A stretch of DNA of 64,000 nt from Eledone cirrhosa. Taxonomy: Eukaryota. Position numbers and translations under genes: made by a program. Below, piece by piece: positions 28,632 to 30,678 of the stretch. The number at the start of each line of letters is the position of its first letter. Position 1 is the first letter of the stretch. The notes beneath the pieces are model-generated. The model was not told the origin of the DNA and did not search any database. It saw only the letters and a list, made by a program, of their open reading frames with translations. The DNA lies in the NCBI GenBank assembly GCA_964016885.1, contig OZ024740.1, positions 95,356,001 to 95,420,000 on the forward strand, written 5' to 3'.

Positions 28632-28900
28632 TAAATGTAAGTATGCATGCATACGTACATACATATATGTATACAGACGTACAGTAGCATGCACATATAT
28701 ATATATATATACATATATACATACATATGCATACAGGTACACATACATATATGCACGTATCAGTTTAGCGGCGATAAAATATCGTTTTCGGTATGCCTGA
28801 CCGATTTAACTCACTCAATATGCAAATTAGGCTGCTCAGCCGTTAATTTTCATAAGGAAAGTATATACTTTCGAACGTTCAACTATCTGGCAGATGGGTA

Positions 28901-28945
28901 AACGGTGCTGATGATAGCTAACAAGCTTGAAACTAGTACATCGTT
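28901..28945 (+). ncRNA. Minimal type I hammerhead ribozyme, unit 1 (intact)
   Basis: aacggtg-CTGATGA-tagctaacaagctt-GAAAC-ta-GTA-catcgtt. Palindromic stem III ACTAGT. Confidence 0.9.
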
Positions 28946-29830
28946 CCTGTGTCAGTGTTGAACAAAAAGGTGACGTGGTTGCCTTAACACCGTATGGCAT
29001 AAATTCAGGCTGTTCAGTTTGTTTACAAACGAACAAAGCGACGTTAGCGCCGCTAAACTGATACGTGCATATATGTATGTGTACCTGTATGCATATGTAT
29101 GTATATATGTATATATATATATATATGTGCATGCTACTGTACGTCTGTATACATATATGTATGTACGTATGCATGCATACTTACATTTAAGTAAGTGCCA
29201 TACTAAGAGTGATAAATGAAATTTCGTTTTCATTTTGTTTCAATTTATCGTTTTCGGTATGCCTGACCGATTTAACTCACTCAATATGCAAATTAGGCTG
29301 CTCAGCCGTTAATTTTCATAAGGAAAGTATATACTTTCGAACGTTCAACTATCTGGCAGATGGGTAAACGGTGCTGATGTTAGCTAACAAGCTTGAAACT
29401 AGTACATCGTTCCTGTGTCAGTGTTGAACAAAAAGGTGACGTGGTTGCCTTAACACCGTATGGCATAAATTCAGGCTGTTCAGTTTGTTTACAAACGAAC
29501 AAAGCGACGTTAGCGCCGCTAAACTGATACGTGCATGTATGTATGTGTACCTGTATGCATATGTATGTATATATGTATATATATATATATGTGCATGCTA
29601 CTGTACGTCTGTATACATATATGTATGTACGTATGCATGCATACTTACATTTAAGTAAGTGCCATACTAAGAGTGAGAAATGAAATTTCGTTTTCATTTT
29701 GTTTCAATTTATCGTTTTCGGTATGCCTGACCGATTTAACTCACTCAATATGCAAATTAGGCTGCTCAGCCGTTAATTTTCATAAGGAAAGTATATACTT
29801 TCGAACGTTCAACTATCTGGCAGATGGGTA

Positions 29831-29875
29831 AACGGTGCTGATGATAGCTAACAAGCTTGAAACTAGTACATCGTT
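29831..29875 (+). ncRNA. Minimal type I hammerhead ribozyme, unit 3 (intact)
   Basis: Identical to unit 1. Unit 2 (29367-29411, CTGATGT) and unit 4 (30277-30320, C deleted) carry core lesions. Confidence 0.9.
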
Positions 29876-30678
29876 CCTGTGTCAGTGTTGAACAAAAAGG
29901 TGACGTGGTTGCCTTAACACCGTATGGCATAAATTCAGGCTGTTCAGTTTGTTTACAAACGAACAAAGCGACGTTAGCGCCGCTAAACTGATACGTGCAT
30001 CTATGTATGTGTACCTGTATGCGTATATATGTATATATATATATGTGCATGCTACTGTATACATATATGTATGTACGTATGCATGCATACTTACATTTAA
30101 GTAAGTGCCATACTAAGAGTGAGAAATGAAATTTCGTTTTCATTTTGTTTCAATTTATCGTTTTCGGTATGCCTGACCGATTTAACTCACTCAATATGCA
30201 AATTAGGCTGCTCAGCCGTTAATTTTCATAAGGAAAGTATATACTTTCGAACGTTCAACTATCTGGCAGATGGGTAAACGGTGTGATGATAGCTAACAAG
30301 CTTGAAACTAGTACATCGTTCCTGTGTCATTGTTGAACAAAAAGGTGACGTGGTTGCCTTAACACCGTATGGCATAAATTCAGGCTGTTCAGTTTGTTTA
30401 CAAACGAACAAAGCGACGTTAGCGCCGCTAAACTGATACGTGCATATATGTATGTGTACCTGTATGCATATGTATGTATATATGTATATATATATATATA
30501 TATGTGCATGCTACTGTACGTCTGTATACATATATGTATGTACGTATGCATGCATACTTACATTTAAGTAAGTGCCATACTAAGAGTGAGAAATGAAATT
30601 TCGTTTTCATTTTGTTTCAATTTATATATATATATATATATATATATATATATATATATATATATATATATATAATGT

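Follow-up and report, generated by a model that had tools for sequence, protein, structure and literature searches.

Two dispersed insertions of different ages, sharing the same two termini, lie within the window (the whole 64-kb stretch of Eledone cirrhosa DNA analysed here), and both are built from a short non-coding unit that carries a type I hammerhead. The explanation we favour, with reasonable though not high confidence, is that they belong to a non-autonomous, non-coding non-LTR retrozyme that borrows the RT-endonuclease of a (TA)n-targeting PLE. Judged from the DNA, the involvement of PLE machinery in the insertion of this retrozyme-type element is highly probable; how its RNA template was shaped, and in particular whether it was a circle, calls for more cautious wording.

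The larger insertion (locus 1, 28632-30622) is a tandem array for which TRF reports a period of 464, 4.0 copies and 96% matches over 28780-30625. This agrees with a preliminary description of the region, which had recognised four near-identical units of about 460 bp inside (TA)n, and (TA)n does indeed flank the array on both sides. The four units (28780-30622) measure 466, 464, 446 and 467 nt, unit 3 having two deletions within the TA-rich part, and pairs of units are 2-4 substitutions apart, plus indels. In the four-unit alignment none of the 6 ungapped variable columns is common to two units, and the indels are either private or changes in TA length. Such a star pattern is compatible with any very recent origin as well, and the private differences could in part be assembly errors. 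To the left of the units stands an inverted arm (28632-28777) which BLAST aligns to unit 1 with 145 of 146 positions identical, and together with the small distances between units this upholds the earlier impression that the array is young. The arm had been described as an inverted 5' fragment; it does sit at the 5' end of the insertion, but what it copies is a 3'-proximal part of the unit. Where the arm meets unit 1 there is a mini-hairpin, the left half of which is the reverse complement across the 3' end that we call site B, joined to the inverted arm through a CG overlap.

Coding capacity is slight: the longest ATG ORF in the sense direction of the unit has 40 aa, and the antisense frames of 107-127 aa are of low complexity. 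We considered whether the insertion could be an autonomous PLE and ruled this out, as there is no RT plus GIY-YIG ORF within 28632-30622 and seven PLE protein queries gave no tblastn match to RT or GIY-YIG coding there. No tRNA was found within the element, an LTR/PBS/PPT organisation is absent (PBS and PPT judged by eye), and its GC content is 0.36-0.37. The features of both insertions are collected in Table 1.

Table 1. Positions in the window of the parts of the two insertions and of the (TA)n tracts beside them; A and B are the two 3' ends.
Feature	Position	Strand	Remarks
Left (TA)n tract	28469-28633	.	insertion target
Locus 1 inverted, 5'-truncated arm	28632-28773 (BLAST to 28777)	-	unit positions ~269-410; 3' end is site A, without tail
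Arm junction	28772-28784	.	mini-hairpin CGATA-AAA-TATCG
Unit 1	28780-29245	+	466 nt; hammerhead intact
Unit 1 type I hammerhead	28877-28963	+	extended helix I; C3 at 28908; predicted cut after 28938
Unit 2	29246-29709	+	464 nt; core A9 to U at 29380; cut site (after 29404) intact
Cut-to-cut monomer	29405-29868	+	464 nt; the sole one of locus 1 that would close with an intact core
Unit 3	29710-30155	+	446 nt; hammerhead intact; C3 at 29838; cut after 29868
Unit 4	30156-30622	+	467 nt; C3 deleted after 30283; cut site (after 30313) intact
Tail, site A to site B	30565-30622	+	58 nt; right end only of the locus 1 insertion
Right (TA)n tract	30623-30674	.	common to the Neptune-type PLE starting at 30675
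Locus 2 inverted arm	37113-37438	-	unit positions ~106-466; ends at site B, with tail
Locus 2 direct arm	37443-37864	+	position 413 round to ~406-410 (0.99 unit); ends at site A
(TA)n tract after locus 2 direct arm	37865-37969

In units 1 and 3 the core CUGAUGA, helix II, GAAA, the palindrome ACUAGU and the cut GUA^C are all intact, with helix II of unit 1 having 4 bp over a U.U pair and the palindrome lying at 28932-28937. Units 2 and 4 bear different core lesions, as had been observed before: A9U in the one and a missing C3 in the other. A descriptor scan of both strands of the window returned four matches, namely units 1 and 3, a copy at 37622 and an unrelated solo hammerhead at 53001, and relaxing it by one mismatch added unit 2 (A9U) and one likely chance match. 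Chance does not readily produce this pattern: none of 5000 dinucleotide shuffles of one unit scored, loose stems included; 60 shuffled windows gave no strict match against 3 in the real window; and overall the hammerhead motif was observed 5 times against an expectation of 0. Covariance models were less responsive. Rfam gave no gathering-level match in the whole window, and an E-value scan of the array listed no hammerhead among 150 of its 183 matches, these 150 being for the most part spurious hairpin matches to microRNA or snoRNA families in the TA-rich segment. A scan of 111 nt gave a weak match to Hammerhead_HH9 (18.5 bits against a cut-off of 52, E 0.016), and in this below-threshold alignment the internal loop and distal helix I, which bear on a possible tertiary contact between loops 1 and 2, align with the model. 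The pattern has no exact match in bacterial and archaeal genomes, nor does the motif occur in the supplement of Craig 2021 (PMC8557442).

The predicted geometry of helices I/II/III is 7/4/2 bp in the array and 6/4/2 bp at the second locus, with an internal loop and a long distal helix in helix I and the ACUAGU palindrome in place of helix III. As described in Cervera 2014 (PMC4209133), canonical metazoan type I hammerheads have a helix I of ~6 bp, a helix II of 4 bp and a helix III of 1-2 bp with a small palindromic loop, and judged by its sequence the present ribozyme is one of these. The same source gives the min-HHR of PLEs a helix II of 7-8 bp with a 5' unpaired base, a helix I of 4-5 bp, no loop 3 and a G10.1-C11.1 pair. 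A min-HHR is ruled out here by a helix II of 4 bp over U.U, a helix I of 6-7 bp with its extension, and a palindromic loop 3. The earlier reading of a minimal hammerhead with an ACTAGT palindrome was, then, right about the palindrome but not about the ribozyme being minimal.

The ribozyme appears to have been maintained. Fixed differences between the two loci affect 3 of 43 positions in the hammerhead and 50 of 197 elsewhere (Fisher p 0.008); the three in the hammerhead, all of them at tolerant positions, concern N7, loop 2 and the outer margin of helix I. On this comparison the hammerhead is under selection, kept in a copy that is ~24% diverged, and the element family would have been mobile over a long period with its ribozyme selected throughout. 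In the extended helices I and II, 99% of 103 cells are paired and all four varying pairs still pair; the covariation is not significant, being reached by 88 of 500 shuffles, and there are effectively two lineages in the comparison. With its short, palindromic helix III the ribozyme is probably active as a dimer. Nearest-neighbour energies, which leave tertiary contacts aside, put a domain-swapped dimer at -22.2 kcal/mol against two monomers at -5.4 with helix III closed and -16.2 with it open, and on this model dimer cleavage is expected, despite the non-minimal ribozyme. In newt-type hammerheads each core of a swapped dimer cuts the site of its partner. If the same holds here, units 1 and 3, whose cores are intact, could between them cleave at all four sites, and the monomer spanning 29405-29868 would be the one fully intact circle.

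A BLAST search of the window with the array unit revealed a relative, 72-78% identical, at 37113-37864 (locus 2). This second, older copy (~76% identical overall, hammerhead intact) had been missed by the preliminary description, which had regarded confinement of the copies to satellite-like arrays as evidence against its reading; locus 2 is dispersed and not tandem, so no such confinement exists. The direct arm of locus 2 retains an intact hammerhead (C3 at 37622, cut after 37652), and in its inverted arm the GAAA is broken by a 4-nt insertion. The arms of locus 2 differ from each other at 22 of 262 positions, those of locus 1 at 1 of 146. We asked whether inverted arms might come from a second template and found no support for this in the dN/dS between the arms of three PLE fold-backs, which at 1.04, 0.88 and 0.61 (p 0.72, 0.49 and 0.13) is not significantly below neutral, so that arm divergence can be read as age. 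The inverted and direct arms seem to start identical, and locus 2 seems roughly ten times older than locus 1.

Each insertion finishes in a pair of 3' ends that face outwards, namely site A (unit position ~410) and site B (466); at locus 1 A is on the left and B on the right, and at locus 2 the roles are swapped. The distance between the sites is 58 nt at locus 1 and ~56-61 nt at locus 2, and with the 3' ends fixed at these two sites, ~58 nt apart, just one arm of each insertion bears a tail, the opposite one at the two loci. Each locus also has a (TA)n target and an arm that is inverted and truncated at its 5' end. Craig 2021 (PMC8557442) gives the inverted arm, the one-sided tail and the (TA)n bias as PLE traits, and Frangieh 2024 (PMC11167929) describes a PLE protein that nicks and extends both strands at AT-rich DNA, with RT starting at two internal sites and the gap between them forming a tail which the authors call unique to PLEs. 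The RT-bearing PLE fold-backs of the window have one-sided tails likewise, of about 40 to 78 nt: ~40 nt in a Neptune-type element at 30675-35115, and 78 and ~67 nt in Hydra-type elements, the clade labels coming from linker motifs compared with Craig 2021 (PMC8557442) and not from a tree, and the tails of two elements beginning with TA repeats. The retrozyme tail thus falls between those of the Neptune-type and Hydra-type elements. The one-sided tail between two 3' sites is the strongest evidence for PLE mobilisation, and the case for a PLE enzyme is now better than the preliminary description, which had proposed one, could make it. Comparison of the unit with 14 element-end segments of the window found no similarity (best E 0.82), nor did comparison of unit and tail with four PLE tails, of which the H1 and H2 slices were imperfectly cut. 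As none of the PLE ends tried from the window is tied to the element by sequence, we name no helper PLE.

What kind of template the enzyme copied is a separate matter. The ribozyme cut (unit position 159/160) coincides with no end, and of the four arms three continue across it, which means that the templates were either uncut or re-ligated. The long arms comprise 4.00 units at locus 1 (positions 1-466 four times) and 0.99 units at locus 2, and the start of each lies next to the 3' site of that same arm, which is B at locus 1 and A at locus 2. One rule, a PLE RT running round a circle, explains both loci. The rough joint chance of such whole-unit phasing is 0.002, a post hoc figure for two loci which would lose most of its weight if 3' and 5' ends alike simply tend to fall at A and B. 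The two cDNA ends that meet at the junction of locus 1 each lie no more than ~2 nt from site B; at the junction of locus 2 there are ~5 nt of microhomology, enough perhaps to account for where it lies without invoking a circle. Folded as a circle, the monomer is predicted to reach -149 kcal/mol against -107.5 +/- 5.3 for 60 shuffles (z -7.85), part of which is supplied by the TA-rich segment, z being -4.1 (sense) and -3.4 (antisense) without it. The MFE circle, as predicted, retains helix II with helix I in a shifted register, so that it is not the active fold. Published work urges restraint here. PAc, the one PLE studied in vitro, prefers uncleaved RNA and inserts it, insertion persists in its hammerhead mutants, and its cut site coincides with no read ends (PMC11167929), and among the Xenopus retrozyme dimers of a 2026 preprint (bioRxiv 10.64898/2026.07.22.740005) eight of nine were without cleavage. 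Rolling-circle copying, which the preliminary description had proposed, gains from the phasing and loses from these reports, and we keep it as an inference. Overall, the phasing leads us to regard a circular template for the retrozyme insertions as somewhat favoured.

On the explanation that we prefer, a multi-unit RNA would be transcribed, and two of its hammerheads would pair via ACUAGU and cut at GUA^C to give monomers of ~464 nt. A host ligase would close these into circles in which, as in other retrozymes, the lone ribozyme would be nearly silent. A PLE protein would then nick both strands of a (TA)n tract, as the anatomy at both loci suggests, and prime cDNA internally at A and B, ~58 nt apart and one per strand, leaving two outward-facing arms with a tail on only one. 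One polymerase may run whole turns, four at locus 1 and one at locus 2, and halt near its own start, and the two cDNA ends would be joined by microhomology; the phasing is what we observe, and this would be its cause. That the insertions are footprints of rolling-circle target-primed RT on circular RNA by a PLE protein, with an in-phase stop after whole turns, is put forward tentatively, and it is likewise possible, if short of probable, that two active sites primed either side of the 58-nt element on one and the same circle.

The same element and a PLE helper could also have worked from a linear, uncleaved multi-unit transcript, the element being in effect a non-autonomous pLTR-like derivative with a ribozyme that is weak, protein-assisted or used at another step, and A and B being hot spots for priming and 5' truncation. 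Read-through of the cut site is predicted equally by a linear template, the low activity of the Xenopus dimers is in keeping with it, and about 21 of the 57 families in Xenopus are reported to have pLTR homology (24 families had matches to 22 TEs, of which 21 are PLEs; bioRxiv 10.64898/2026.07.22.740005). Such a template does not, however, predict that a long arm starts next to its own 3' site, it requires a source array of at least five near-identical units, and the hammerhead here is canonical with a long helix I, whereas the PLE-end motifs of the window have a long helix II. We consider a linear template unlikely on balance, while giving it real weight.

Growth at the DNA level, by unequal exchange, slippage or repeated in-phase insertion into the tail after a PLE had inserted one or two units, is less probable still. 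Unequal exchange does preserve whole-unit counts, the preprint (bioRxiv 10.64898/2026.07.22.740005) offers a local amplification model for retrozyme satellites, and a PLE endonuclease is able to nick its own tail (PMC11167929). Against this, the units share no derived differences in the variable columns described above and all their indels are private, an insertion of 1.0 unit has almost no terminal redundancy for recombination, and the original phasing is left unexplained. It is scarcely credible that the array is a plain minisatellite, or a product of faulty assembly, in which a hammerhead-like motif arose by chance. The want of a threshold Rfam match would suit that idea, the region is TA-rich and repetitive, and the copy number is that of the assembly; but the shuffles do not score, the motif is selectively kept in the diverged copy, each unit has distinct differences, and defined ends are common to both loci. 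The favoured explanation remains, then, a retrozyme that relies on a PLE.

The testable features of non-LTR retrozymes are all found in this element, as far as its sequence allows them to be read: short tandem units with a type I hammerhead, two cores of the array being intact and two having single lesions with a fifth intact core at locus 2, no coding capacity, a GC content below 50%, dispersed copies with defined ends and a predicted circle that is highly self-paired. Its placement as a retrozyme-type family therefore stands, on tandem non-coding hammerhead units and a dispersed copy with the same termini. Metazoan non-LTR retrozymes as described in PMC7229834 (Acropora, Mytilus and the axolotl Rtz_331 and Rtz_353) similarly have one type I hammerhead per non-coding tandem unit, GC below 50%, a highly paired predicted circle and co-occurrence with PLEs. 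Two further likenesses from that paper are the weak palindromic helix III of HHR_Amex1 and the U.U pair at the base of helix II of HHR_Amex2. Its retrozymes, unlike ours, have a visible TSD, in place of which the present element has the inverted arm, one-sided tail and (TA)n target. The invertebrate circles it reports are of 170-400 nt, against a unit of ~464 nt here whose circle is predicted only; set beside these the unit is at the long end of the size range, as had been suggested, but not when set beside the 51-972 bp of the 2026 preprint.

The insertions also resemble those of PLEs and their pLTRs (Neptune, Hydra and Penelope/Poseidon; PMC8557442, PMC11167929 and PMC4209133) in a partial or full tandem arrangement, inverted 5'-truncated arm, one-sided tail, (TA)n target, ATT/TA-like ends and a hammerhead near the region where RT starts. 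They differ from PLEs in having no ORF, in a canonical ribozyme rather than a min-HHR, in a tail of 58 nt where published PLE tails have 30-40 nt, and in a cut site 250-310 nt upstream of the ends, compared with ~35-150 nt in the PLE-type ends of the window. The working definition of the pLTR-derived retrozymes of Xenopus (bioRxiv 10.64898/2026.07.22.740005) loosely fits the present element, with its tandem type I hammerhead units, and 75% of the families there have at most 7 units. The element differs from them in showing no homology to pLTRs, as represented by the PLE ends of the window, and in that its two intact units are not consecutive. That preprint argues from co-occurrence and pLTR homology, with no mollusc sampled, and tails go unmentioned in the parts of it that we draw on.

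The neighbourhood is consistent with a cephalopod family, as first proposed: the PLE proteins beside the array resemble those of Argonauta hians and Octopus. For the adjacent Neptune-type ORF the best named relative among 120 of 134 matches is from A. hians (54% identical), with Octopus vulgaris and oysters lower, and inspection by eye places the Hydra-type ORF at 17245-18741 close to Hydra-1_Obim from Octopus bimaculoides, though the two are not identical. On this transposon homology an octopod is the likely host. Our literature search found no cephalopod retrozyme and no retrozyme tails or inverted arms, although Repbase may file the family as a non-autonomous Penelope. The words octopus and cephalopod are absent from the main text of PMC7229834, the supplement of which might list cephalopods, and the account of the giant squid genome counts 235 hammerhead-1 matches, in the part seen, without analysing them (PMC6962438). 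On sequence grounds the family would be new and its class already known.

A 2020 review states that retrozyme repeats show no motif pointing to a helper (PMC7761336), and the preprint (bioRxiv 10.64898/2026.07.22.740005) likewise leaves the mechanism of mobilisation unresolved. The insertion scars described here carry a PLE-specific tail and inverted arm, and so bear on the identity of the enzyme that moves retrozymes in animals. With this family, the known range of retrozymes would come to include cephalopods. Should the rolling-circle reading be true, animal retrozyme circles would be tied mechanistically to PLEs, with a cis-element named, and would be real transposition intermediates, so far a hypothesis. 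If the circle step fails, this is one more retrozyme or non-autonomous PLE family. A prediction testable from a genome assembly alone is that the 5' junction follows the arm's own priming site.

As regards transcription, the octamer ATGCAAAT occurs in all four array units (28820, 29286, 29750 and 30196) and is missing from locus 2, and a promoter search found no B box in the unit on the strand scanned. Newt satellite 2 has a small-nuclear-RNA-type promoter. About 40 nt past ATGCAAAT is a 16-nt palindrome with a TATA-like centre (28857, 29323, 29787 and 30233), identical at locus 2 (37571), which could be a promoter element or an RNA hairpin. On the minus strand at 28232-28450 there is, by eye, a SINE-like segment with A-box and B-box-like motifs; facing away from the array, it would not give sense read-through.

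The window is rich in related insertions. Fold-backs at 14629-20201, 21466-24238, 24250-28196, 30675-35115, 37970-43600 and 61200-62968, mostly bounded by (TA)n, have an arm divergence of 2-14% and include two Hydra-type PLEs and one Neptune-type PLE; with the two retrozyme loci, fold-back insertions make up ~42% of the window, and each retrozyme locus shares a (TA)n tract with an adjoining PLE. The Hydra-type element at 16106-18741, among the youngest PLEs of the window (2-3% arm divergence), has long open frames in both arms, of 392 and 498 aa from stop to stop. Hammerhead-like motifs with a long helix II, missed by the strict scan, lie at 19990-20060, 24050-24100, 38100-38170 (minus) and 43500-43560, close to where the Hydra-type elements and the 21466-24238 fold-back have their 3' ends, and one of them has the palindrome AUGCGCAU as helix III. 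The 21466-24238 fold-back itself has a hammerhead, a ~90-nt tail and TA-rich ends, gave no tblastn match to the PLE proteins tried, and may be either a 3' fragment standing alone or one more non-autonomous derivative of a PLE. Finally, the solo type I hammerhead of ~60 nt (52953-53009, minus; C3 at 53001, cut after 52963) lies between two (TA)n tracts with no host element visible. Its helix III is full and could work as a monomer, its helix II is weak with a U.U pair beneath it, and the flanking TA repeats could extend its helix I.
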